A stretch of 64,000 bases of DNA from a bacterium (GCA_021814165.1 JAKAIX010000002.1:136501-200500); one strand, 5' to 3'. Counted from the stretch's first letter, positions 1,606-50,350 are shown. Notes: generated by a model not told the origin, from the letters alone. Numbers and translations are program-made.

Positions 1606-3267
1606 TTATGGATAGACCTGGGAGCCCCCAACGCACGCGTTTAGTTTTCCTTGGGCGTCCTTCAGGGTTAGCTGAATTGCGGCAAGAAGTTGTGTGGCAT
1701 CTGACTTAATACTCGACGCCGAAGAGAGCGCAGCGGTTATGAGATCTCTAAACGATTGATCGATTGAAGGCATCTGCCCGCTACTAGCCTGGTTTTTTAA
1801 GAGCGAAGCGCGATCCTGGAGCTTCTGAATGCTGTCGGCTTGGTTGTTTAGGCTGTCTTGTATGGTCTTGATTTGCCCGGGATAGGTTGAGGTTGCGAGA
1901 ACAAGAGTGCTCGATGCCCAACTTATGTCAGTTGAAGAGGCGTTTGATCCCAGACAACTCAGGAGTGACTTGGTTGTAATATAAAGATTTCGCGTCGAAC
2001 TCGCCGCGGTTAAGAGCACATTTGAGGCGTCGTTCAGTGCTGTTTGAGCATCATCTAATGGCCTAAAAATTGCCGCAATTTGACTATTAGTCATGTTTTT
2101 TTGTGCTGTATCTGAAGAGGATGCTGCGTTTGTTATATCGGGGGTTCGCGTGATGCCCGAGTTTTGAGTGTTATCGGGTGAAAGTTTTGCGAGGCCGGTT
2201 TTTACTCCATTTATCCCCTCTTTCACCAATCGATTAAATGCCGCGTCGAGCACTGCGGCGAGCACATTTGTTATGTCGTCCGAGTTGACAATGAAGTCGA
2301 TGTTCGAGCCAAATGATTTGTTCAACCCCTCCGCGATGGTTCGTCCTGGCGTTGTGGTTTTTTTCTCCGTGCACCGGTATTCGAAATTAGGATCATCGCT
2401 CGTCGGTTGTGGCGCGGATCCGTCAGTTTTTACCACAAGAGGAAGACTGCCAGCATAAGTGGAGGCACCAAACTGGAAACCGGGTGTCAAAATATTGCCT
2501 CCAGATCCCTTATTATTCGCGGGCTGACTTGTCTTTACACTGTACATTGTCCAAGTGATACACGCCTCGCTGTTAAATCCGAGATTGATGTTTTGTTTCA
2601 AAACCGACTCCTGCTGTTTTTGCGCCACCGATTGTTCAAGCGCTTGCTGCGTGAGAATCTCCAGTCCGTACTGGTTATTTTGAGGTTTCAAGAGATCGGA
2701 ATAACCGAGCCATCCGCCGGTTTTGAAATCCCTTTTGAATGATTCCAAATTACTCACCACCTGAGAGAGCGTACAACTCACCTGCTTTTTTGTGGTATCC
2801 GGTTGAGCGAGATAGAAATTAACATTGAAGGGTATTCCACTGCATAATTGCCCCGCTCCTACTTGTCGGATTACCTCTCCGGCGGCCTCGTCTGCCGCCT
2901 GTTCAAATACCTTCCCCGGTTTTTGGAGAAAAAGTGGTTTGTCTCCGTTTTGTATCCACTGCACCGTTTCTCTCGTTATCTCATCAAGAAGCTGTTTTTT
3001 GAGTGTTGCGAGAAGTACTTTAAAAACCTTGTCTTGAATAAATCGCCACGCCTCCTCAAGAAAGCCAGCGGTGGTCGCTGTTGTTTGAGCGGCACCGGCA
3101 GCGGCTACGGCAGCGGCTACGGTCGGATCTATAACGAGTTGCGGAGTGACGTTGCTAAGAAGCCAAAACTGGGCTTTTGCTTTTGGCATAAGGAGGGCGG
3201 GATCTGAAATAAGAAAGATACTCAACACAAGAAATAATGAGACCACTCTGATTTTTTGTTGCTTCAT
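1606..3267 (-). CDS. Secreted protein of 553 aa with an N-terminal signal peptide; Ser/Thr/Ala/Asn-rich; unknown function.
   Basis: Complete ORF with N-terminus MKQQKIRVVSLFLVLSIFLISDPALLMPKAKAQ (signal-peptide-like). It is in an operon between an anchored protein and the polytopic membrane protein. Confidence 0.55.
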   Translation of the reverse strand: MKQQKIRVVSLFLVLSIFLISDPALLMPKAKAQFWLLSNVTPQLVIDPTVAAAVAAAGAAQTTATTAGFLEEAWRFIQDKVFKVLLATLKKQLLDEITRETVQWIQNGDKPLFLQKPGKVFEQAADEAAGEVIRQVGAGQLCSGIPFNVNFYLAQPDTTKKQVSCTLSQVVSNLESFKRDFKTGGWLGYSDLLKPQNNQYGLEILTQQALEQSVAQKQQESVLKQNINLGFNSEACITWTMYSVKTSQPANNKGSGGNILTPGFQFGASTYAGSLPLVVKTDGSAPQPTSDDPNFEYRCTEKKTTTPGRTIAEGLNKSFGSNIDFIVNSDDITNVLAAVLDAAFNRLVKEGINGVKTGLAKLSPDNTQNSGITRTPDITNAASSSDTAQKNMTNSQIAAIFRPLDDAQTALNDASNVLLTAASSTRNLYITTKSLLSCLGSNASSTDISWASSTLVLATSTYPGQIKTIQDSLNNQADSIQKLQDRASLLKNQASSGQMPSIDQSFRDLITAALSSASSIKSDATQLLAAIQLTLKDAQGKLNACVGGSQVYP

Positions 3268-3284
3268 AGGGATAAAAACAAAGG

Positions 3285-4091
3285 TTATTTCTTGTTTAGT
3301 GTGTTTGCTTGGTTAGAGAGAACGTTCTGGAGCATTATATTTTCTTCAAGTACCGAGCGAACATCGTTTAAGGCGATTGTCGCCTTCAGGGGATCGTTTT
3401 TAAAATCAAGAACGGCAGTGTATACTACTGACTTTTTCGCCCACAAATTCAGGTTCTGGAGATGCCACACCTTCCATTGGGGCGGTGCCTCGAGCGCCAA
3501 AAGGTCATTTACCTGCCCATTTATAATATTGATGTATTTTGCGAGCGGAGCAGAATCACTCTTATTGAAAAATGCGCTTAGAATATCCGTGGTCGACATA
3601 GAGAACGACCCGAAATTTTTCTGTGTGATCGAACCAATGGCGTTTAGATAATTGGTCTGCGCCTGGATCGAACCATCCTTCCCTGTCCTTATGTCTTTTT
3701 CAGAAAACGAGGGAAACGAGAGATCTTGCGATAGCGCCTGCGTAAGAAAATCATCCATTGATCCGGAAGGAGGCATTCTCAGCGTGTCGGTTGTATCGGT
3801 TGGGTTCCCGCTGTTCAGGTTATAGACCGACTCGACATAGTGCTGTGCTAATGTCTGCGTTAAGTTTCTGTCAGCTGCGGTGCTCGTGCCGATTCCCCAG
3901 GAATTGAGGTCCGAAAGCCCTCCCTCATTCTCAACTCCGTACCCGGCTTTTCCTGTGTTGGGATTTTGGACGACCGAGATGAACGGCTTTTCCCCGGACG
4001 ACGGGGAAATAACAAGGAGAAATGCGACAAGAATCCCCGCTCCGAGAATCATAAAAGCGGCAACCCTTCTTTTTTTGAAATATTGTTTCAT
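3285..4091 (-). CDS. N-terminally membrane-anchored extracytoplasmic protein, about 268 aa, unknown function.
   Basis: The ORF track gives 3285..4121. The internal ATG at 4091 (MKQYFKKRRVAAFMILGAGILVAFLLV) is preceded by an AGGGG-like RBS and avoids overlap with rsmA, so I prefer it. One TM helix, then a polar domain. Confidence 0.5.
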   Translation of the reverse strand: MKQYFKKRRVAAFMILGAGILVAFLLVISPSSGEKPFISVVQNPNTGKAGYGVENEGGLSDLNSWGIGTSTAADRNLTQTLAQHYVESVYNLNSGNPTDTTDTLRMPPSGSMDDFLTQALSQDLSFPSFSEKDIRTGKDGSIQAQTNYLNAIGSITQKNFGSFSMSTTDILSAFFNKSDSAPLAKYINIINGQVNDLLALEAPPQWKVWHLQNLNLWAKKSVVYTAVLDFKNDPLKATIALNDVRSVLEENIMLQNVLSNQANTLNKK

Positions 4092-30978: not shown

Positions 30979-32232
30979 ATGAGAGATAAAGAGGTACGAA
31001 AACTTATCGGAAAAGAAGCAAAACGCCAGAATGACACGTTGAACTTGATTGCTTCGGAAAATTACGTCTCAAAAGACGTACGCGAAGCGTTGGGAAGCGT
31101 TTTTGTAAATAAGTATGCTGAAGGATACCCGCACGCGCGTTATTACGGCGGCAATACGTACGTGGATGAAGTCGAGGAGCTCGCAAAGAGAAGAGCGCTC
31201 AAACTTTTTTCCCTTTCTCCGAAGGCGTGGAGCGTAAACGTCCAGCCGTACTCGGGATCTCCCGCGAATCTCGCGGTTTTGCATGCGCTGGTGCCGGTAG
31301 GAGAAAAAATAATGGGGATGTCGCTCGCAATGGGAGGACACCTCACGCACGGACATAAGGTAAGCGTTACGGGGAAACTCTGGGAACAGATTCCTTACGG
31401 CGTGGACAGGGGTACGGAAAACATCGATTACGGGGAAGTAATGCGGATTGCCAAAAAGGAACAGCCGAAACTTATTATTGCGGGCGCGACTGCATATTCG
31501 CGGATAGTGAATTTTAAAAAGATGAAAGCGATTGCGGATGCGGTGGGAGCGTATCTTTTGGTTGATATGTCGCACTTCGCGGGGCTTGTCGCAGGCAAGG
31601 CATATCCTTCCCCTTTCCCCTATGCCGACGCGGTGACTACGACGACGCACAAGACGCTTCGCGGTCCGCGGGCGGCAATGATCTTCTCGCGTAATACCCA
31701 CCCCCCAATTCCCAATTCGAAATTCCTGATTTCCGAACTGATTGATAAAGCGGTATTTCCCGGGCTTCAGGGCGGGCCGCACGAGAACCAAATTGCCGCA
31801 ATTGCGGTTGCGCTTGAGGAAGCGATGAAGCCCGCATTCAAGAAGTACGCAGCGCAGATAGTAAAGAACACCCGTGCGTTTGCGGAAGAAATGAAACGTC
31901 TCGGCTGGCGCGTGATCTCGGGCGGCACTGACACCCACCTTTTTCTTCTCGACACCGCTTCTCGGGGTATCGGCGGGAAAGAAGCGAGCGACGCGCTTGA
32001 GGACGCAGGAATTATCGTAAATAAAAACACCATCCCCTTCGATGAACGGAAACCGACCGATCCGTCCGGAATACGCATCGGTACGGCGGCGCTCACAACG
32101 CGAGGAATGAAAGAAAAGGAAATGAAAGAAATAGCGTTTCTCATCAACGCTGTTTTAGGGGGAATTTCCAAGAGAAAGAAAAATGAGGCGCAAGGAAAAG
32201 TTGTACGGTTATGCAAAAAGTTTCCTGTCTGA
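30979..32232 (+). CDS. glyA: Serine hydroxymethyltransferase.
   Basis: LNLIASENYVSKDVREALGSVFVNKYAEGYP and the PLP-lysine region TTTTHKTLRGPR. Confidence 0.95.
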   Translation: MRDKEVRKLIGKEAKRQNDTLNLIASENYVSKDVREALGSVFVNKYAEGYPHARYYGGNTYVDEVEELAKRRALKLFSLSPKAWSVNVQPYSGSPANLAVLHALVPVGEKIMGMSLAMGGHLTHGHKVSVTGKLWEQIPYGVDRGTENIDYGEVMRIAKKEQPKLIIAGATAYSRIVNFKKMKAIADAVGAYLLVDMSHFAGLVAGKAYPSPFPYADAVTTTTHKTLRGPRAAMIFSRNTHPPIPNSKFLISELIDKAVFPGLQGGPHENQIAAIAVALEEAMKPAFKKYAAQIVKNTRAFAEEMKRLGWRVISGGTDTHLFLLDTASRGIGGKEASDALEDAGIIVNKNTIPFDERKPTDPSGIRIGTAALTTRGMKEKEMKEIAFLINAVLGGISKRKKNEAQGKVVRLCKKFPV

Positions 32233-32260
32233 TCACGTAATTGAGATATTGCCGCAGGTA

Positions 32261-32289
32261 TTGACAGAAGAACATGCGGCAGTTACCAT
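32261..32289 (+). promoter_or_regulatory. Putative promoter TTGACA-N17-TACCAT upstream of the amidoligase-like gene cluster.
   Basis: TTGACA at 32261-32266 and TACCAT at 32284-32289. A similar TTGACA-N16-TACCAT occurs at 44224-44251 upstream of nusA. Confidence 0.3.
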
Positions 32290-32539
32290 AAAAAATAATC
32301 ATGAATATCAATCAGAAGAACATTAGCCTCCTTATGCACTATTGCGCCGAGCTCCGTGTCGCGATTGTTACGATTTTTTGGATGCAGGGTTCGGGGGTTC
32401 ATCTAAGTTCTTCTTTCATGAAATAAACAGTGACTAAAGAAGTATTGAGATAAGCCTCCGAACGAAACGGAGGCTTATTAATTTGCTCTTTCATAAATAA
32501 ATAAACTCATTCATTCATAAATAACGATGGAGGTAGCAC

Positions 32540-34321
32540 ATGCTACGGATTGATCAATCTCTTGCGGAGCAGAAATTCACTGTTCCAAACATCTTCTTCA
32601 CCTTGGCGGGGAACGTAAAAAGCCAGGAAGTTATAGCCGCTCTTACCGGTATTCTGGGGGATAAATGCCGCGTCTTTAAAGACCGGGATGAAATAAAAGA
32701 AGCTTTTCTTGACGGGCACAGTCCCGATGCGGCGGTTGCGATATTCGACGGGTCTCTCTCGAGAGAGTTTTCACCGAAGTCTTCGTCCCGCTCCGTTGAT
32801 AAAGGAGTCATCCCTTCTTGGGCGGGTGGCGCAGAGTGGGGTGTGCTGGTATCGACGAGAATATTGAACACGGAAAGATGCGCGAGGCAGATCGCCGCAG
32901 ATTTCTATAAAAAGTTCAAGGACCGTCTCGACGAAGGAAACTTCCCCTGGGGTTTTCCCAAGAAAAACGAATCGGGACCGAAGCATATACGTCTCTCCGA
33001 CGAGAAGATGGACACTCTACTGGGTAAGTTAAATTCGGTTTCTGCTCCTAATCTATCGGAGATAATTTCGGATACGTCGAAAGCGGTCGAGATCCCGACA
33101 GGATCAAAAATCAGCTGGATTCGTGTCCCGTCATCGCCGATCGGTGTAGAAGGGAATTATCTTAATAGGGTTGTAAATGCCCTCGAGAAGTTCCAGTCCG
33201 CCGGGGCGAAGCTCTTGGTTAAAGACGAAGACGTGAGGAACATGATCCTTGCAGGTGTTGATCTCCCAAGCGATCCGCGTCTCAGTGATTTATACCTGTT
33301 TCCTCCGACCGACCGTTTCTCCGTTTCCCGCCCCGATCTGCATTTCACCGGTTCCGGGCTCTTCGCATCGGAGAACGATGAGATGCCCGGAGGATTTCCC
33401 GAAGCGGTCCACATCGACGAATCGTATGGATTGCACCAGGAAGAATGGCGGCAAACATTCGACTGGCTTACCGAAGAAGGCCCCCTTCTCTTTCTTGTCT
33501 CTCACGAGTGGAGCGGTTGCTATGTGCAAGAAATGAAATGGCTTGCAGATTATCTGGAGAAGAAGGGCTATCCGGTGCTTTTCACCACCACGGAAGATCT
33601 CTCCGGTCTTGTAATAGACAAAGATGAGGTTTCCTATCAGGGTGAGCACGTCGGTACGGTGTGGCGTCAGTTCCCCATCTTTGAGACCACGGGAAAATTA
33701 GCGGATGTAGTTGACGCGGCAAACAAAGGAATCGTTCGTCTGGTTCCCGAGTTCGCTCACTACGGCAATAAGACGTGGTTTTCCGTATTCAGAAGCCACG
33801 CGGGGTACTTCAAGGAGGTCTTGGATACAGAAGAGTTTAACCTCCTTCTCAAAGTGCTTCCCGATTCCCACCTCGTGCTACCGGAGAAACCCGACAATTC
33901 ATTTCCTTTGAATATTGCGGGAATGACGATTGGTTCACTGGGCGCCCTGAAACGCCTCCCTCTTGGTAAAAGGGACGAGTTGGTGATGAAGGTCGCCGGC
34001 GCGAATACGAAGTCGGCAAGGTCGTACGGCGTACTTATGGGGCACGGATTGAAAGACAAGGATTGGATTAATTGGATTGACGAACGTCTTGAGCTTAAGC
34101 AGCCCTTCATCGTGCAGCAGAAACTGAAAACGGAAGTCATAAAACTCCCAGTAAGGAATATTTCCGAAAAGAAAGATGAGCTGTTCCGCTGCAGAGTGCT
34201 GGTTCGTCCTTGGATTGTGAGTGGAAGAGTTGTTTCGGGAATGGCGACAGCGGTTCCATACACTACCGAAAGGGTTCACGGTATGGTAGATATGGCTATG
34301 TCACCTATTTACCTGTATTAA
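32540..34321 (+). CDS. Large (593-aa) cytoplasmic protein, tentatively an amidoligase related to GspS-type circularly permuted ATP-grasp enzymes.
   Basis: No clean signature. I see weak resemblance to YgiC/GspS-like segments (VWRQFPIF...KGIVRLVPEFAHYGN versus LWEMFP...KYVVKPIFSREGAN). It forms a co-directional cluster with a DmpA aminopeptidase and a racemase. Confidence 0.3.
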   Translation: MLRIDQSLAEQKFTVPNIFFTLAGNVKSQEVIAALTGILGDKCRVFKDRDEIKEAFLDGHSPDAAVAIFDGSLSREFSPKSSSRSVDKGVIPSWAGGAEWGVLVSTRILNTERCARQIAADFYKKFKDRLDEGNFPWGFPKKNESGPKHIRLSDEKMDTLLGKLNSVSAPNLSEIISDTSKAVEIPTGSKISWIRVPSSPIGVEGNYLNRVVNALEKFQSAGAKLLVKDEDVRNMILAGVDLPSDPRLSDLYLFPPTDRFSVSRPDLHFTGSGLFASENDEMPGGFPEAVHIDESYGLHQEEWRQTFDWLTEEGPLLFLVSHEWSGCYVQEMKWLADYLEKKGYPVLFTTTEDLSGLVIDKDEVSYQGEHVGTVWRQFPIFETTGKLADVVDAANKGIVRLVPEFAHYGNKTWFSVFRSHAGYFKEVLDTEEFNLLLKVLPDSHLVLPEKPDNSFPLNIAGMTIGSLGALKRLPLGKRDELVMKVAGANTKSARSYGVLMGHGLKDKDWINWIDERLELKQPFIVQQKLKTEVIKLPVRNISEKKDELFRCRVLVRPWIVSGRVVSGMATAVPYTTERVHGMVDMAMSPIYLY

Positions 34322-34418
34322 TTTCCTGCGGGTCGGTTCTTCCAACGACCGACCCACAGATATATTTCGTGTTGTTATATGAATACTTGAGGATAAGGTC
34401 GAGTATTCATAACACAAC

Positions 34419-35483
34419 ATGAGTAATAATAAAAAACGTTTTTACGAGTACGGTCTCAACGAGGCCTCTTTTCCGCGTGGGGAAAGAAATAAAATAAGCG
34501 ACGTTTCCGGCGTCCGCGTGGGACACGTAACGAAAGTCGAGGGGGAAAATGTGCGCACGGGGGTGACGATCGTCGATCCGGGAATCAAAGAGCTTTTCAA
34601 AAACAAGATTCCGGGAGCGATCGCGGTCGGGAACGGATACGGAAAACTCACGGGGATTACCCAGGTCGAGGAACTCGGGACGATCGAGGCGCCCGTAGGA
34701 CTTACCAGCATTCTTTCGGTTGGTGCGGTGCTTCAGGGAATCATCGGAGCAGTTTCCGGCCGGGAAGCGCTGGGCTCGATCGATGGCCCGAACGTGATTG
34801 TAGGCGAGGTGAACGACGGATTCTTGAATGGTATACATAAGGGTTCTATCGGAACGGAAGACGTGAAAAATGCTTTTTACAGCCTCACCGAAGATTTTTC
34901 TCTCGGAAATGTGGGCGGCGGAACGGGATCGCGGGGCTTCTCGTGGAAAGGAGGCATCGGAAGTTCTTCAAGAATCGTGGAAGCAGGAGGTAAAAAATAT
35001 ACGCTCGGCGTTTTGGTGCAAACAAACTACGGCGGCTCGCTTTCCATAACAGGCGTTCCCGTTGGAAAGTTGCTCGGGAAGACGGACTTTGACGAATTTC
35101 TCCCCGGCAATTCCGGAGGGTCATGCATGATTGTGCTCGCGACCGACGCGCCTTTTTCCGCGCGGCAATTAAAAAGGATTGCGGAGAGGACGTTTCTCGG
35201 CCTCGCGCGTACGGGATCCGTCATCTCCCCCACGAGCGGAGATTATACTATCGCGTTTTCTACGAATCGAGCCGGCATCGAAGGCACAAACACGAAGGAA
35301 ACATTACTTCCTGATGCGATACTCTACAGGTTTTTTCTTGCTGCGGTAGAGGCCACAGAAGAAGCGGTGTATGACGCTTTATTTGCCGCGGAAACCATGA
35401 AAGGCAGGGACGGGAATGTCCGCGAAGCAATACCGATTGAACGCGTGGTCGAAATTATAAGGTCGTACCGCCATGCCGCGTGA
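34419..35483 (+). CDS. DmpA/BapA-family (peptidase S58) Ntn-hydrolase aminopeptidase.
   Basis: VSGVRVGHVT..., LVQTNYGG, and the autoprocessing/nucleophile region NSGGSCMIVLATDAPFSARQLKRIAE match the DmpA family. Confidence 0.7.
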   Translation: MSNNKKRFYEYGLNEASFPRGERNKISDVSGVRVGHVTKVEGENVRTGVTIVDPGIKELFKNKIPGAIAVGNGYGKLTGITQVEELGTIEAPVGLTSILSVGAVLQGIIGAVSGREALGSIDGPNVIVGEVNDGFLNGIHKGSIGTEDVKNAFYSLTEDFSLGNVGGGTGSRGFSWKGGIGSSSRIVEAGGKKYTLGVLVQTNYGGSLSITGVPVGKLLGKTDFDEFLPGNSGGSCMIVLATDAPFSARQLKRIAERTFLGLARTGSVISPTSGDYTIAFSTNRAGIEGTNTKETLLPDAILYRFFLAAVEATEEAVYDALFAAETMKGRDGNVREAIPIERVVEIIRSYRHAA

Positions 35484-36165
35484 ACGAATAGGAATTGTAG
35501 GCGGCATGGGACCGCTTGCGGGAGTTCATTTTCAGAAACTCATTGTTGAAGCTACTCCCGCGAAAAAAGATCAGGATCATCTTGAGGTGGTTTGTTATAC
35601 CAATCCCGGAATTCCGGATCGTACCGCGTCCCTTTTTGAAGACGGAGGTCAAAGGTTTGTCGACGGGATAACAAAAACCCTGCAGGTGTTAAGCGGCGCG
35701 GGAGCGACGCTGGCGGTTATGCCTTGCATCACGGCCCACGCGAAGTTTTCCGATATTTCGGATAGTTCCCCTCTCCCTGTTCTGAACGTTATTCACGCTC
35801 TTGATGAGTATGTAGTCGGCAGATACGGAACGGGGGCAACCGTAGGTATTCTTGCAACGGACGGGACGGTGAAAGGGCGCATATTCGAGATGTCGGGGAA
35901 TATAAAGTGCATATATCCCCCTTCGGAATATCAGCGTGAGATTATGAAATTGATACTCGATATAAAAGCGGGAATGAATTTAACAAAGGCGGCCGATCAA
36001 CTTCTGGAATATGCAAAACACTTCAAGAAAGATAACGTCGATGCGGTGATATTGGGATGTACCGAGTTTTCTCTTTGTCTCGGAGACATCAAAGATCGCT
36101 TGGATATTCCCGTGGTGGATCCTCTTGAAGTTGCGGCAAAAGAAATCGTGAGGCGCTGCTCCTAA
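35473..36165 (+). CDS. Asp/Glu/hydantoin racemase family enzyme, likely aspartate racemase.
   Basis: IGIVGGMGPLAG, and the two catalytic Cys motifs MPCITAH and ILGCTEFSL. It overlaps the DmpA gene by 11 nt. Confidence 0.8.
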   Translation: MPRERIGIVGGMGPLAGVHFQKLIVEATPAKKDQDHLEVVCYTNPGIPDRTASLFEDGGQRFVDGITKTLQVLSGAGATLAVMPCITAHAKFSDISDSSPLPVLNVIHALDEYVVGRYGTGATVGILATDGTVKGRIFEMSGNIKCIYPPSEYQREIMKLILDIKAGMNLTKAADQLLEYAKHFKKDNVDAVILGCTEFSLCLGDIKDRLDIPVVDPLEVAAKEIVRRCS

Positions 36166-36194: not shown

Positions 36195-36358
36195 GATGTA
36201 AATCCAATAAATAAATATAGGAGGAGGGTATCCTTCGTAGCCTTGGCGAAGAAGGATATGCTTCGGAGGATTTCGCCCGACGAAGCACGTGAAGTGACAC
36301 CACGGCCTTATGGCCGTGGGGCTTCACATCGTTTTGCTTTGTTGCTACGATTGAGCCG
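36195..36358 (+). promoter_or_regulatory. Structured 5' leader upstream of folD with nested stems; candidate cis-regulatory RNA.
   Basis: The stems are accctcct...aggagggt, ggcgaa(gaagg-auaug-cuuc)...uucgcc, and gugaag-ugacaC-CACGGCC-uuau-GGCCGUGg-ggcuucac. There is no SD in front of the folD ATG. Confidence 0.3.
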
Positions 36359-37183
36359 ATGGTGATAGACGGCAGGAAAATCGCGGACGAGCTTCTTCAA
36401 ACGCTTAAAGCAAAGCAGAAAACCGGAAAGTTTCTTGCGGGAATCCTCATCGGCGACGACCCGGCATCATTGAGTTTTTTGATGCAGAAACAGAAAGTTG
36501 CCGAGGAGCTCGGCGTCGATTTTAGGTTATACAAACTTGATACGAGCCTGGGAAACGACAAACTTCGCGAGGAGGTGGGAAAAATCGCACGCCTTGGGAT
36601 GTGCGGCGGCGCGCTCGTCGAGCTGCCGCTTCCCGCTCACCTGAACCGTCATTACATTTTAAATGCCGTACCCCGCGAGAAGGACGTGGATGTCTTGGGA
36701 GAGCGCGCTCTCGGGGCATACTATGCCGGAAGAAATCCGGTTCTTCCGCCCGTTGCGGGAGCCGTCGATGAAATCCTCCGTCGCGCGAACTCCGAACTTA
36801 AGGGAAAACGAGTTGCGATTGTCGGAACCGGATTCCTTATCGGGCGCCCAATTGTGACATGGCTCATGAATAGGGTTGAAGAAATATTCGTGGTACACAA
36901 GGGCAGTGACTTCTCGATTTTGAAAAAAGCGGATCTTGTAATTTTGGGGACCGGCCAGCCGCTCCTTATAACGCCCGACATGATAAGGGAAAAAGCGATC
37001 GTGATCGACTTCGGGTACGGGAAGATTGATGGAAAAATGTACGGCGACTTCGATGCATCGTCGTTGGAAACAGGGGATTGTAAGTTGAAGATCGATTATA
37101 CCCCCGTGCCGGGCGGAGCCGGGCCTATTTTAATCGCCAAACTCTTCGAGAATTTTTTTACACTCGTTGAGCGGCAAAAGTAA
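36359..37183 (+). CDS. folD: Bifunctional methylene-THF dehydrogenase/methenyl-THF cyclohydrolase.
   Basis: KDVDVLGERALG (the KDVDG-like motif) and PVPGGAGPILIAKL (the PGGVGP motif). Confidence 0.9.
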   Translation: MVIDGRKIADELLQTLKAKQKTGKFLAGILIGDDPASLSFLMQKQKVAEELGVDFRLYKLDTSLGNDKLREEVGKIARLGMCGGALVELPLPAHLNRHYILNAVPREKDVDVLGERALGAYYAGRNPVLPPVAGAVDEILRRANSELKGKRVAIVGTGFLIGRPIVTWLMNRVEEIFVVHKGSDFSILKKADLVILGTGQPLLITPDMIREKAIVIDFGYGKIDGKMYGDFDASSLETGDCKLKIDYTPVPGGAGPILIAKLFENFFTLVERQK

Positions 37184-41180: not shown

Positions 41181-42479
41181 ATGAACGAGCGCATATTCAA
41201 AGCGTATGACATTCGCGGGATATATCCCTTGGAGATAAACGATGAGGTTGCCGCGGAAGTCGCGCGAGGATGTTCGGCGCTCTTTCCGGGAGGAAAAATG
41301 ATTGTGGGAAGAGACGTGAGAATCGGCTCTTCCGAGCTTGCGCAGGCCATCGTAAAAAACCTCCTCCTCAACCCGAAGTACGAGGTTATCGATGTGGGTA
41401 TATGCAGCACCCCGCTCTTCTACTTTGCGGTGAATGCGCTCGGGGCGGCCGGTGGGATTATGGTTACTGCTTCCCATAACCCCCCCGAATGGAATGGGTT
41501 TAAGGTGGTCGGTCCGAAGGCGGTCATGATCGGCGGGGATGCGGTCAAAGAAGCGATACGGAACGCCGGACCCGCGGGACAAGGAGGCGGACGTTATGAA
41601 AAACGCGAGATGGTGGAAGAATATGTCTCTTTTTACAAACAGCAATTTAATGTTCGAAAGCCGCTCCGCGTAGTATGTGATTTCGGGAACGGTGCCACGG
41701 GGCGGATTTGCTCCGCGCTTGTGCCGGTTTTCGAGAACATCACGTTCAGCTTTTTGAATGATGTTCCGGACGGAAGATTCCCCTCAAGAGGTCCCAATCC
41801 CCTTATCCCCGGAGCATTGGATGGTTTGAAAAAGGAAGTGGTGAAGACCGGCGCCGAGCTTGGTGTAGCATTCGATGCCGACGGAGACAGAGCGTTCTTC
41901 GTAGACGGGCACGGCGACGAGATTCCCTATTATGTCGTCGCTTTTCTTCTTGCGGAACAGGGGAAGGAAAGACTTGTTGCGGAGGTGCAGACATTTCATG
42001 TCCTGAAACATATCGGATACAAAGGCGAGCTTTATGAATCGCGTGTGGGAACCCGCTTCATGAAAGAGAAAATGAAAGACGTTGACGCGGATATAGGCGC
42101 CGAGTACTCGGGGCATTATTACTTCAGGGAGTTTTTTGATACGGACTCGGGAATATTCGCTTTTATGAGGCTGCTCCAAATCATCTCGGGGCTGCCCTCT
42201 TCTTTCCAGGAATTTCTTGAGCGTATTCCGAGACGCGAAACAACCCAGTGGGACGTTCGGGTTGAAGATCCCGCGGAGTCAATTCGGAAGATTTCCTCAA
42301 TATATGAAGGGAAAAACGAGCTCCAGAAAGACACCACGGACGGCGTCGTGTTTGCCTCGAGGGATTGGCTCTTCGGTATGAGGCCGTCAAACACAGAGCC
42401 GCTCCTCCGGTTTTGGGCGGGTGCCGACTCAAGAGAAACACTTGAGAAGCTTGTACGGGAGATACAGTCGAATTTCTAG
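41181..42479 (+). CDS. Phosphohexose mutase of the PGM/PMM family (GlmM/ManB-like).
   Basis: The active-site Ser loop is TASHNPPEWNGFK, with a Mg loop (FDADGDR) and a sugar-binding loop. Confidence 0.85.
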   Translation: MNERIFKAYDIRGIYPLEINDEVAAEVARGCSALFPGGKMIVGRDVRIGSSELAQAIVKNLLLNPKYEVIDVGICSTPLFYFAVNALGAAGGIMVTASHNPPEWNGFKVVGPKAVMIGGDAVKEAIRNAGPAGQGGGRYEKREMVEEYVSFYKQQFNVRKPLRVVCDFGNGATGRICSALVPVFENITFSFLNDVPDGRFPSRGPNPLIPGALDGLKKEVVKTGAELGVAFDADGDRAFFVDGHGDEIPYYVVAFLLAEQGKERLVAEVQTFHVLKHIGYKGELYESRVGTRFMKEKMKDVDADIGAEYSGHYYFREFFDTDSGIFAFMRLLQIISGLPSSFQEFLERIPRRETTQWDVRVEDPAESIRKISSIYEGKNELQKDTTDGVVFASRDWLFGMRPSNTEPLLRFWAGADSRETLEKLVREIQSNF

Positions 42480-48793: not shown

Positions 48794-50350
48794 GTGAAAG
48801 CTCTCGACTTCAAAAATAAAAAGGTGCTTATCATGGGTCTCGGGACGCTCGGCGGAGGAATCGCAAGCGCGAAGTGGTTCGTCTCGCAGGGCGCAAAAGT
48901 AACGGTGACCGACTTGCGTACAGAGAAGAGATTGAAAAATTCTCTTGAAAAGCTCGGGTATTTTAAGAATCGAGATCTTAAGGGGGGCACTATGACGCGT
49001 CATAGTGCGCATAAGGAAGTTGTAGAATTTGTGTTGGGGAGGCATAGGGTTCAAGATTTTAAAAATAACGATATTATCGTCGTGAACCCCGCCGTACCGC
49101 GGGAGAGTAAGTATCTCGCAATAGCGAGAGAAGAGGGGAAAGTTATTGTGAACGACGCGAGAGTATTTTTCGATTCGGCACGGAATCCGATTATTTCCGT
49201 AACCGGTACAAGGGGAAAAACCACTACTACAAACTGGATTGCGCATTTCCTGAAATCGAAGTATCCGGATACGATCGCGGGAGGCAACTCGTCGAAGGAA
49301 GCCCTCCTCTCTCTTGTCGAAAAACTGAAAAACAAAAGAGCGCCCGTCGTAGTTGAGCTTTCCTCATGGCAGCTTGAACTTTTAGATAAATCGTCTCGTG
49401 GCCCCGATGTGGCGGTCATTACCAATATCTACCCCGACCATCTGAATCGTTATAAGAACATTCGGGACTACGCCTCGGCGAAGGCAAATATTTTTTCAAA
49501 CCAGACGAGATCGCAAAAGCTCGTTCTGAATCTCGATAATCCGTGGACGAAGTTCTTTCTCTCGAAAAAACCAAAGGCGAGAGCGTACTTCTTTTCCCTG
49601 AAACCGCTTTCAAAAGGTAAGCAGGGGATATTTGTTTCGAACGATCGCGTGATCTTGAAAATCGGCAGGCAGGAAAAAATTGTCCTTGGAGAAAAAGAAT
49701 TTAAGATATTACGGACCAGGGGAGAACACAATGTGCAGAACTTCCTCGCGGCGTCGCTCGCGGCGTCGCTTATGGGGATTTCGAATGATGCGATACGAAA
49801 GAGAGCGAGAACGCTTCCCGAAATCCGGTACCGGGAGGAAATCGTGTTTAGGGAAAAAAAACTCCTCGTGGTAAACGATTCGGCAGGCACCTCTCCCGAT
49901 GCGGTAATCGCGGCGATCAGGCGTTTTAAAAACCGGGGAGATTTGATATTAATTACCGGCGGTACGGACAAGAATCTTGAATTCAGTCCGCTCGCGAGGG
50001 AAATAAAGAAGACGCTGAAACCCAAGCAGGTATTTTTTTTGAATGGCAGCGCAACAAAGAAACTGATTAAAGAATTGAGAGCGCTTCGATACTTCCCGAA
50101 AACTGGTCCAAGGATTTTCGAAAGCCTACCCGAAATCTTGAAGGGAATCAGGGATAGAGAATTAGGTATTAAAAAACGGGAATCAGGAATTAGCCTGCCT
50201 GCGCAGGCAGGGAATCAGGAATTAGGGACGCGATTTGTAATTCTTTTCAGCCCGGGGGCGGCGAGCTTTGAAAAGTTCAAAAACGAATTCGACAGAGGTG
50301 AGAAGTTTGATATATACTTGAAGAAACTTTTCGAGGTGGGTGGTGTTTAA
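48794..50350 (+). CDS. murD: UDP-N-acetylmuramoyl-L-alanine--D-glutamate ligase.
   Basis: N-terminal Rossmann MKALDFKNKKVLIMGLGTLGGGIASAKWF, the Mur ligase P-loop VTGTRGKTTTTNWIAHFL, and the C-terminus FSPGAASFEKFKNEFDRGEKF. It carries in-frame repeat insertions. Confidence 0.8.
   Translation: MKALDFKNKKVLIMGLGTLGGGIASAKWFVSQGAKVTVTDLRTEKRLKNSLEKLGYFKNRDLKGGTMTRHSAHKEVVEFVLGRHRVQDFKNNDIIVVNPAVPRESKYLAIAREEGKVIVNDARVFFDSARNPIISVTGTRGKTTTTNWIAHFLKSKYPDTIAGGNSSKEALLSLVEKLKNKRAPVVVELSSWQLELLDKSSRGPDVAVITNIYPDHLNRYKNIRDYASAKANIFSNQTRSQKLVLNLDNPWTKFFLSKKPKARAYFFSLKPLSKGKQGIFVSNDRVILKIGRQEKIVLGEKEFKILRTRGEHNVQNFLAASLAASLMGISNDAIRKRARTLPEIRYREEIVFREKKLLVVNDSAGTSPDAVIAAIRRFKNRGDLILITGGTDKNLEFSPLAREIKKTLKPKQVFFLNGSATKKLIKELRALRYFPKTGPRIFESLPEILKGIRDRELGIKKRESGISLPAQAGNQELGTRFVILFSPGAASFEKFKNEFDRGEKFDIYLKKLFEVGGV
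50180..50225. repeat. 18-nt palindrome CCTGCCTGCGCAGGCAGG inside murD, flanked by a 14-nt direct repeat (gaatcaggaattag).
   Basis: gaatcaggaattag-CCTGCCTGCGCAGGCAGG-gaatcaggaattag. It translates in-frame as SGISLPAQAGNQELG. Confidence 0.8.

Follow-up and report, generated by a model that had tools for sequence, protein, structure and literature searches.

The window analysed here is a stretch of 64,000 nucleotides of bacterial DNA (GCA_021814165.1, JAKAIX010000002.1:136501-200500), in which glyA, ending at position 32232, is followed by a leader region and three genes (Table 1). That these genes are co-directional, lie behind a 307-nt upstream gap and end in an 11-nt overlap had been predicted originally, and the coordinates of the open reading frames (ORFs) agree. 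They encode a 593-residue putative ligase, a family S58 peptidase and an amino-acid racemase; as read from their sequences, none of the three carries a signal peptide. The predicted attenuator in the leader, the N-terminal domain of the ligase and a deacylase gene found in a related clade were not part of the original prediction.

Table 1. Positions of genes, domains and leader elements in the window
Feature	Position	Strand	Description
Gap between glyA and ligase gene	32233-32539		307 nt
Promoter-like site	32261-32289	+	sigma-70 type, TTGACA-17-TACCAT; 10/12 consensus matches; ends 11 nt 5' of leader ATG
Leader ORF	32301-32426	+	41 codons + stop; near-leaderless; MNINQKNISLLMHYCAELRVAIVTIFWMQGSGVHLSSSFMK
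Trp codon of leader ORF	32379-32381		single
Antiterminator 5' strand	32391-32405	+	TCGGGGGTTCATCTA; complementary to terminator 5' arm
Intrinsic terminator	32449-32489	+	12-bp stem GATAAGCCTCCG / CGGAGGCTTATT, 7-nt loop, U-rich tail; -18.2 kcal/mol
Shine-Dalgarno of ligase gene	32529-32533	+	GGAGG, read from the sequence
Putative ligase ORF	32540-34321	+	593 aa
Ligase N-terminal domain	32540-32989	+	aa 1 to ~150; alpha/beta; conserved loop FT21LxGNxxS28, plus D70, W94, W100
Ligase catalytic part	33044-34321	+	aa ~169-593; circularly permuted ATP-grasp
Peptidase S58 ORF	34419-35483	+	354 aa
Overlap of S58 and racemase genes	35473-35483		11 nt
Racemase ORF	35473-36165	+	230 aa
GlmM-type phosphoglucosamine mutase	41181-42479		Pfam domains; same contig
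murD	48794-50350

A putative ligase of the permuted ATP-grasp type

The ligase of the window yielded zero matches in Pfam, NCBIfam and the PDB sequences in phmmer and profile searches. None of 37 family members matches an ATP-grasp Pfam model, and neither the window protein nor its 37 relatives significantly match the curated GSP_synth, GSH_synth_ATP or CP_ATPgrasp models. The original prediction likened the protein to the circularly permuted ATP-grasp enzymes of the GspS/YgiC type, and a high-confidence structure model with its fold matches has confirmed this resemblance: the fold is the three-domain permuted ATP-grasp of that type, and not a non-enzymatic scaffold, with Cp1B as the top structural neighbour. 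As for the expected ATP/Mg site, residues R264, D266, E278, D280, K411, K484 and Q526 do not vary throughout the superfamily, making up an R-x-D, an E-x-D, two Lys and a Gln/His position, and they align with the R-x-D/E-N-N-A-D-T-P and K-P...V-Q-Q motifs of YgiC at a level below significance (hhalign E = 0.06-0.08). From this model and these motifs, the protein may be an ATP-dependent carboxylate-amine ligase, an assignment that belongs to an overall explanation of the locus which we rate at a little under an even chance.

The GspS/YgiC/YjfC group comprises glutathionylspermidine synthetase and peptide-spermidine ligases. The present protein shows no significant sequence similarity to this group, to eukaryotic glutathione synthetase or to the fungal E-64 ligase Cp1B. 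It also differs from the GspS group in that a small alpha/beta N-terminal domain, with no recognisable catalytic residues, takes the place of the CHAP cysteine amidase domain, which is absent, and in that its Mg motif is E-x-D instead of the usual E-x-N. No homology was found between the N-terminal domain and either the M20 deacylase described below or a 131-residue protein encoded upstream of the Eremiobacterota homologue, and the apparent stand-alone N-terminal domains returned by an exhaustive search look like cut-off fragments. In the same search, the ligase branch comprised 341 representative clusters; a distant sister family, found mainly in Eremiobacterota, has at least 8000 sequences. 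The substrates that Cp1B joins are epoxysuccinate, which is a C4 dicarboxylate, and amino acids (PMC12568646).

Peptidase and racemase

Ntn hydrolases of family S58 act on N-terminal D-Ala or beta-amino acids. The proposal that gene 2 encodes such a DmpA-type aminopeptidase holds, with a Pfam Peptidase_S58 match of E = 4.1e-95 (319 bits against a cut-off of 23.9). The closest solved structure is Pyrococcus PH 2drh (250 bits), followed by DmpA and BapA, and the protein is a clear member of their family: it has retained the nucleophile, the amine-binding Glu and the oxyanion Ser-Gly, the Gly-Ser self-processing site is present with cleavage predicted between G234 and S235, and conservation among 43 S58 sequences is at least 93% for S235, E130, N132, D133 and S273-G274-D275.

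Gene 3 matches Pfam Asp_Glu_race (6.5e-34) and scores 144.6 bits on the NCBIfam asp_race model (TIGR00035, cut-off 93.1). Both Cys motifs, MPC85xTAH and GC196TE, are present, with a conservation of 93% or more among 40 racemases linked to the cluster. Its best PDB match is the Pyrococcus aspartate racemase 1jfl, and the conserved R50 and K165 align with R48 and K164 of Pyrococcus AspR, which we take to bind the side-chain carboxylate. In contrast, the MurI glutamate racemase model (TIGR00067) gave only 33.3 bits against a cut-off of 146.65. An enzyme making either D-Asp or D-Glu had been expected; judged from its sequence, gene 3 is a PLP-independent racemase of the Asp and not the MurI Glu type. 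An Asp-type enzyme fits an acidic D-amino acid, which is probably D-Asp. The window racemase falls closely below the cut-off of the cysteate-racemase CuyB equivalog (NF052483; 181.8 against 190 bits), and the racemase of the short-ligase clade scores 179 bits on that model, so the acid could also be cysteate, another amino acid or an Asp isostere.

Conservation of the three-gene unit

The unit is almost confined to the ultra-small Patescibacteria. Among 43 distinct loci with enough downstream sequence, the ligase-S58 pair is kept in 41 and the full order ligase-S58-racemase in 37, with overlaps or short gaps between the genes and unrelated flanks; such clustering is far more than chance, and the original expectation of a unit conserved in relatives was correct. 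The racemase gene is absent beside the ligase in five of the 43 loci, where no replacement enzyme follows and housekeeping genes come next; supply of the D-residue may thus be dispensable for the core pair. No transporter is linked to the cluster, and no fourth gene is conserved in the long-ligase loci. The short-ligase clade, however, adds an ArgE/DapE-like M20 N-acyl (succinyl-type) deacylase in all four of its loci. A succinyl-type deacylase fits an aspartyl, that is, amino-succinyl, amide.

The three genes might simply be unrelated neighbours, with the racemase as the cell's source of D-Glu or D-Asp for MurD and the cell wall. Indeed, murD lies in the window and needs D-Glu, and no MurI-type racemase was seen within the window. 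However, the constancy of gene order and orientation among differing flanks and the low glutamate racemase score speak against this, as does a nearby gene for the MurL epimerase in one cluster-bearing relative, which provides a route avoiding free D-Glu, so that free D-Glu is probably not needed there. The idea that the racemase feeds MurD is left without support, and we regard a chance neighbourhood as very improbable.

The closest precedent for a racemase beside a ligase comes from the operons RacD-AslA of L. lactis and Racfm-Aslfm of E. faecium, which serve peptidoglycan cross-bridges. As in the present unit, an Asp-type racemase and an ATP-grasp ligase share one operon in both; in L. lactis, racD-aslA encodes an Asp racemase and a D-Asp ATP-grasp ligase (PMC4155827). 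AslA, however, is a classical non-permuted ATP-grasp enzyme unrelated in sequence to the ligase described here, and its system has no S58 peptidase, deacylase or leader-peptide attenuator. By analogy, the ligase could be a non-homologous counterpart of AslA, attaching D-Asp from the racemase to the Lys of the stem peptide in a UDP-MurNAc-peptide, with the S58 enzyme trimming or editing beta-D-aspartyl precursors. Apart from this direct precedent, MurJ, GlmS, BacA/MurL or GlmM genes occur near some loci, and the TxxGNxxS loop of the N-terminal domain could hold a phosphate or carboxylate group. Yet the nearby cell-wall genes are not kept from one locus to another, and the gene neighbourhood gives the originally suggested peptidoglycan link no support. 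The statement that murD was the only other peptidoglycan enzyme in the window is also not quite right, as a GlmM-type phosphoglucosamine mutase is encoded there too. A role in cross-bridge synthesis appears improbable to us.

A predicted transcription attenuator in the leader

The 307-nt leader carries a promoter and a near-leaderless ORF of ~40 codons, together with an antiterminator and an intrinsic terminator, and this architecture recurs in divergent loci. In ~25 of 37 divergent loci, a TTGAC precedes the leader ATG by 36-42 nt, and the stretch between the two has no Shine-Dalgarno sequence. An ATG ORF of 31-43 codons whose stop is 18-37 nt before the terminator is found in 20 of 23 loci, compared with 2 of 23 on the reverse strand, and the pattern of leader ORF and terminator is also seen in metagenome loci and in the short-ligase clade. 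In nearly all loci, including with a divergent upstream gene, an equivalent hairpin and U-tract precede the ligase gene. For the antiterminator duplex of the window, the computed energy is -15.6 kcal/mol, which corresponds to z = -3.2 when compared with shuffles. In the set of 37 loci, z against dinucleotide shuffles averages -2.4 and falls below -2 in 24. The antiterminator site covaries with the terminator arm of its own locus and, in most loci, lies at a distance of 1-40 nt from the end of the ORF. Among the alternative folds computed for the window leader, pairing of an anti-antiterminator (segment 1) is clear, although over the set of loci its mean z is -1.0, a weak signal.

The leader peptides contain Trp in 32 of 37 cases against 17 expected (P = 3.5e-7), as a single residue and not in a run; 35 of the 37 also have an internal Met. 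This lone Trp is the only recurrent rare codon of the ORF, and its neighbours are mostly aromatic residues or Met. A T-box, brought to mind by the conserved UGG, was discarded, as there is no Rfam match and the UGG lies outside the antiterminator. In Rfam searches, the window leader gave nothing at E <= 10 except sub-threshold Phe_leader matches caused by the terminator hairpin, and ten relatives gave only tRNAs. The leader is most likely a ribosome-dependent leader-peptide transcription attenuator that would gate transcription of the operon. Like the trpL, pheL and hisL attenuators, it has a short translated ORF and an intrinsic terminator, and the 3' part of the ORF contains the 5' strand of an antiterminator that cannot coexist with the terminator. 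Unlike them, it is near-leaderless, lacks a Shine-Dalgarno sequence, has a long ORF with a single conserved Trp instead of a codon run, belongs to no Rfam family and precedes genes that do not form an amino-acid biosynthesis operon.

LysX (ATP-grasp), LysK (M20) and LysW provide a precedent for a carrier peptide, and a gene for a ~40-residue peptide, a partial terminator and an ATP-grasp gene are the usual layout of a peptide-modification cluster. The leader ORF could therefore encode a substrate or scaffold, either a RiPP precursor or a LysW-type carrier, that the ligase modifies and from which the S58 or M20 enzyme releases the product. In the short-ligase clade, the presence of an ArgE/DapE-type M20 deacylase beside the ATP-grasp ligase does recall LysX/ArgX-LysW-LysK, and the M20 enzyme weakly matches the [LysW]-lysine hydrolase model; yet no carrier protein is conserved here and the ligase belongs to another ATP-grasp branch. 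The leader peptides, moreover, have almost no common sequence and no conserved C terminus, they are depleted of Asp and Glu, and the covariation of the 3' part of the ORF with the terminator arm is a constraint at the RNA level. Substitutions show no preference for any of the three codon positions and the peptides align poorly, which suggests little selection on the amino-acid sequence: the ORF is kept, not its sequence, and a conserved functional peptide was rejected as a candidate. A carrier or precursor role of the leader peptide is thus highly unlikely.

Discussion

The explanation that we consider most likely, if still slightly short of an even chance, is that leader, ligase, racemase and S58 peptidase are the four functional parts of a single regulated operon, in which an amide-linked acidic D-amino acid would be formed at the expense of ATP and removed by the S58 enzyme under control of the transcription attenuator. 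The promoter would drive the near-leaderless ORF, whose 3' part is able to base-pair with the terminator's 5' arm. Ribosomes within the ORF, or stalled on it, would favour the antiterminator, and RNA polymerase would read into the genes; with the upstream RNA free, the antiterminator strand would be sequestered and the terminator would form. The racemase would provide the acidic D-amino acid, most likely D-Asp. The ligase would work through an acyl-phosphate intermediate, as do GspS, glutathione synthetase and Cp1B, with its additional N-terminal domain serving in substrate binding. The S58 enzyme would act on a free N-terminal amino group in D- or beta-linkage, removing or transferring the residue from the ligase product. 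The unit may thereby build and dismantle a conjugate of the form D-Asp-(alpha or beta)-CO-NH-acceptor. Of this explanation, the folds, the catalytic residues, the conservation of the operon and the layout of the attenuator are shown by the analysis, whereas the substrates, the action of ligase and peptidase on one bond and the signal that would stall the ribosome are inferred. A ligase and hydrolases that act on one bond within an operon look futile unless they are regulated or work in sequence.

Leader-peptide attenuation is a classic answer to scarcity of charged tRNA, and Patescibacteria are auxotrophs. These features would suit a salvage pathway induced by starvation, in which the S58 enzyme, together with M20 where present, frees residues in D- or beta-linkage from peptides that the cell has scavenged, for instance pieces of host cell wall, the racemase converts the released acidic D-amino acid to the L form and the ligase re-uses or traps a product. 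The short-ligase clade has two hydrolases, and S58 is the best-conserved member of the cluster (54-60% identity, compared with 40-49% for the ligase), as might be expected in that case. However, the first and largest gene encodes an ATP-consuming ligase, needless for a purely catabolic route, and the cluster has neither signal peptides on its proteins nor a linked transporter. We consider salvage unlikely.

To our knowledge, S58 and racemase genes are not operon partners of GspS/YgiC/YjfC, glutathione synthetase or Cp1B. No paper naming both 'aspartate racemase' and 'DmpA' was found, and a fixed partnership of an S58 peptidase with a ligase and a racemase is not described in the literature searched, which likewise yielded no translation-coupled transcription control in the Patescibacteria lineage. 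It is conceivable, though we would sooner doubt it, that the explanation preferred above extends to a Patescibacteria-specific beta- or alpha-linked D-aspartyl (or D-cysteate-like) conjugate, perhaps a novel bridge in the cell wall, perhaps a small metabolite, made and recycled by a unit that uses a ligase family unrecognised by the databases and is under a near-leaderless, Trp-containing leader peptide. In that case, no earlier description of a ribosome-dependent attenuator from this radiation would exist.

Patescibacteria have tiny genomes with almost no biosynthesis, so that a conserved, tightly regulated operon that spends ATP is likely to be important for the way they live. The ligase represents an unannotated branch of the ATP-grasp enzymes; once its reaction is assigned, thousands of 'hypothetical proteins' could be annotated. 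The leader is a concrete example on which translation-coupled transcription control can be tested in these bacteria, and the fixed partnership of ligase, S58 peptidase and racemase points to a D-amino-acid chemistry in Patescibacteria that extends beyond D-Ala and D-Glu.

Conservation of the gene unit

The three co-directional genes lie exactly where the original prediction had placed them, with a 307-nt gap between glyA and the ligase gene and an 11-nt overlap between the peptidase and racemase genes; the second gene was likewise confirmed as a peptidase S58. The proposal in that prediction that the neighbourhood be compared among relatives was followed up with exact-protein look-ups, a one-genome-per-species scan and a metagenome scan. 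These yielded 52 distinct loci, of which the 43 with at least 2.3 kb of downstream sequence were used to count arrangements. The order ligase, S58 peptidase, racemase was found in 37 of the 43; four carried the ligase and S58 only, one the ligase followed by the racemase, and one the ligase alone. In one more locus the racemase lies upstream. These counts speak against the alternative, which we considered, that the three genes are merely co-located. The flanking genes vary between lineages: glyA and folD, both of one-carbon metabolism, flank the unit only in the closest relatives of the window (loci L009-L011), and the unit looks as if it had been inserted between them. All-against-all clustering of neighbouring ORFs gave no fourth conserved gene, and in loci lacking the racemase unrelated housekeeping genes come next.

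Features of the unit and its surroundings in the window
Feature	Position	Strand	Remarks
glyA	30979-32232		Upstream flank of the unit
Promoter-like site	32261-32289	+	TTGACA-17-TACCAT
Leader ORF	32301-32426	+	Conserved, 41 codons
Ligase gene	32540-34321	+	ORF, 593 aa
Peptidase S58 gene	34419-35483	+	354 aa; Pfam 4.1e-95
Racemase gene	35473-36165	+	230 aa; Asp/Glu/hydantoin racemase, NCBIfam aspartate-racemase subfamily
folD	36359-37183		Downstream flank; own promoter-like site at 36323-36351

We also considered that the unit might be a peptidoglycan-bridge ligase system. L. lactis and E. faecium offer a functional precedent, the racD-aslA operon, in which a racemase and an ATP-grasp ligase are encoded together (PMC4155827), yet the ligase of that operon belongs to another ATP-grasp branch, and nothing seen here links the present unit to peptidoglycan. 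Envelope genes occur near some loci but show no conserved association with the unit, and the link to peptidoglycan raised by the original prediction finds no support in the gene neighbourhood. In one relative, the unit is followed 2.7 kb downstream by a gene for MurL (UDP-MurNAc-L-Ala-L-Glu epimerase; L008 12560-13839), which suggests that this genome reaches D-Glu by the MurD2/MurL route and argues against a need of the racemase for D-Glu. The MurD-like ligase of the window itself (48794-50350) has 518 aa; a typical MurD is shorter, at about 440-450 aa.

The ligase family and its fold

As the original prediction had noted, the 593-aa protein lacks any canonical signature: searches of Pfam, NCBIfam and PDB sequences with the protein alone and with a 37-sequence profile gave no match. 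Its relatives make up a separate family of 134 clusters at 90% identity, whose members are 40-77% identical and all annotated as "hypothetical", and whose source organisms, where named, are Patescibacteria/Paceibacteria (Sungbacteria, Uhrbacteria, Liptonbacteria, Staskawiczbacteria and others). An AlphaFold2 model built from 37 relatives was confident (pLDDT 91.8, pTM 0.80), and Foldseek supported an ATP-grasp fold (E = 1e-13 to 1e-8, probability 1.00) with Cp1B as the nearest structural neighbour, bearing out the earlier guess of a circularly permuted, GspS/YgiC-type ATP-grasp enzyme. Two independent, weak hhalign alignments with E. coli YgiC (E = 0.06 and 0.08) place the conserved residues on canonical motifs: R264-x-D266 on R-L-D, E278-x-D280 on E-N-N-A-D-T-P, K484 on V-K-P and Q526 on V-Q-Q. 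The window ligase is also rich in Trp, with 13 residues (2.2%) where 18 other proteins of the window have 1.24%; the majority of the 13 are invariant.

When 1.84 billion representatives were searched exhaustively with a profile, 341 related clusters emerged, none of them with a Pfam domain. About 20 are full-length and about 10, of some 450 aa, lack the first ~160 residues; the remainder fall into a large, more distant family of ~470 aa with at least 8000 sequences, the majority from Eremiobacterota. Homology of this family to the ligase spans the 400-residue catalytic part (hhalign probability 99.6), and no S58 or racemase neighbours were found for it. Across the whole superfamily R264, D266, E278, D280, P283, G284, R376, K411, K484, Q526 and H580 are invariant. 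At two of two loci of the distant family an unannotated 131-134-aa gene precedes the ATP-grasp homologue (L064 6460-8434, L065 6461-8422), without similarity to the N-terminal domain of the ligase. That domain is fused to a different, unrelated C-terminal region in one 557-aa protein (P0245) and to an ScpA-like N-terminus in another of 296 aa (P0238), which may reflect genuine domain shuffling or gene-call artefacts.

Where the ~450-aa ligases without the N-terminal domain occur, the order is ligase, S58, racemase, M20 (4/4 loci), the M20 protein being an ArgE/DapE-type deacylase that scores below the family cut-offs (149-170 bits versus 217.6). Absence of the domain goes with presence of M20, but the coincidence may stem from just one evolutionary event. 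The short-ligase unit always lies directly upstream of rplJ-rplL (L066 7001-11404; also L067, L068 and L070).

The peptidase and the racemase

The best match of the window S58 protein is the Pyrococcus "D-aminopeptidase" 2drh (250 bits), with DmpA and BapA next (~150 bits). At its self-cleavage site G234|S235, at E130-x-N-D and at S273-G-D, conservation among 43 cluster-linked sequences is 93% or more. Enzymes of this family require a free N-terminal amine and prefer D- or beta-linked residues. In one locus (L020 2187-3391) the S58 gene matches as two pieces, query residues 6-184 (2187-2726) and 167-354 (2828-3391), which suggests that this MAG carries a frameshift, an insertion or an assembly error.

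With 144.6 bits the racemase clears the cut-off of 93.1 for the NCBIfam aspartate-racemase subfamily; its score stays slightly below the cut-off for the cysteate-racemase equivalog (181.8 versus 190) and far below that for glutamate racemase (33 versus 147). It is closest to the Pyrococcus aspartate racemase 1jfl. In 40 sequences, C85, C196, R50 and K165 each show conservation of 93% or more; the last two align with R48 and K164 of AspR, the residues that bind the side-chain carboxylate.

A translated attenuator in the leader

The gap before the ligase is long (~250-500 nt or more) in all loci examined, irrespective of the upstream gene or its orientation, and no Rfam family matches the leader. 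About 25 of 37 loci carry a TTGAC(A) box, followed by a -10-like hexamer, 36-42 nt ahead of the leader ATG, which has no Shine-Dalgarno sequence before it; a near-leaderless mRNA is therefore implied. In 20 of 23 loci the leader ORF (median 39 codons, range 31-43) stops 18-37 nt short of a strong intrinsic terminator, compared with 2 of 23 in a reverse-strand control, and the same pattern recurs in metagenome loci and the short-ligase clade. Public gene calls place a 39-aa minus-strand ORF inside the leader (window 32283-32402; L001 7744-7863), which is probably spurious, since the conserved ORF is on the plus strand.

The leader peptides can scarcely be aligned, and substitutions among close relatives are about as frequent at first and second as at third codon positions (9/8/12 in one example), indicating that selection maintains the open reading frame and not the peptide sequence; the possibility that the small ORF encodes a substrate or scaffold was considered in this context. 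Trp is the exception: 32 of 37 peptides contain it, against an expected 17 (P = 3.5e-7), usually as aromatic-W-[M/L/F]. All but two of the 37 have an internal Met, and Asp, Glu and Pro are depleted.

Within its last 1-40 nt the leader ORF holds a segment complementary to the 5' arm of the terminator of the same locus (mean z -2.4 against dinucleotide shuffles; z < -2 in 24/37 loci). This antiterminator covaries with the terminator arm across loci: CGGGAGCTGGTCTGA pairs with CAAACCAGCTCCT in L033, and ACGGAGACGGGC with CGCGTCTCCGG in L024. In the predicted fold of the full window leader, 32391-32405 is hidden within a 5' domain, and the terminator forms alongside it (-18.2 kcal/mol). With the 5' part removed, as under a ribosome, 32391-32405 is predicted to pair with 32447-32461, a fold of -28.0 kcal/mol for 32391-32492 that persists with the 3' arm of the terminator present. 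An anti-antiterminator shows up only weakly when the loci are compared (mean z = -1.0). The logic is the same as in attenuation of the trp, phe and his type, and the ribosome could stall through a hungry Trp codon, through nascent-peptide arrest involving Trp, or in response to general translation status. That the unit serves as a starvation-induced salvage route was among the explanations considered.

A possible pathway

Beyond the folds, catalytic residues, operon conservation and attenuator anatomy established here, we propose that the racemase would provide a D-amino acid of acidic type, with D-Asp the likeliest candidate, that the ligase would form an acyl phosphate from a carboxylate and couple it to an amine, and that the S58 enzyme would remove or transfer a D- or beta-linked residue. 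A related role would fall to the DapE/ArgE-like deacylase in the short-ligase clade. An aspartyl amide can be written as an amino-succinyl amide, which fits both a DapE-type (N-succinyl) deacylase and the likeness to Cp1B, which joins epoxysuccinate, a C4 dicarboxylate, to amino acids (PMC12568646). A beta-aspartyl linkage, formally that of a beta-amino acid, falls in the substrate class of BapA. The idea of a D-amino-acid conjugate, advanced in the original prediction, is a reasonable hypothesis.

The ATP-grasp ligase, S58 peptidase, Asp racemase and leader-peptide attenuation are parts of known kinds; their arrangement and the ligase family are undescribed in the databases and literature searched. 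In that literature no paper was found on leader-peptide transcription attenuation in the Candidate Phyla Radiation, and the leader, as a conserved translated attenuator, is the most concrete new result.
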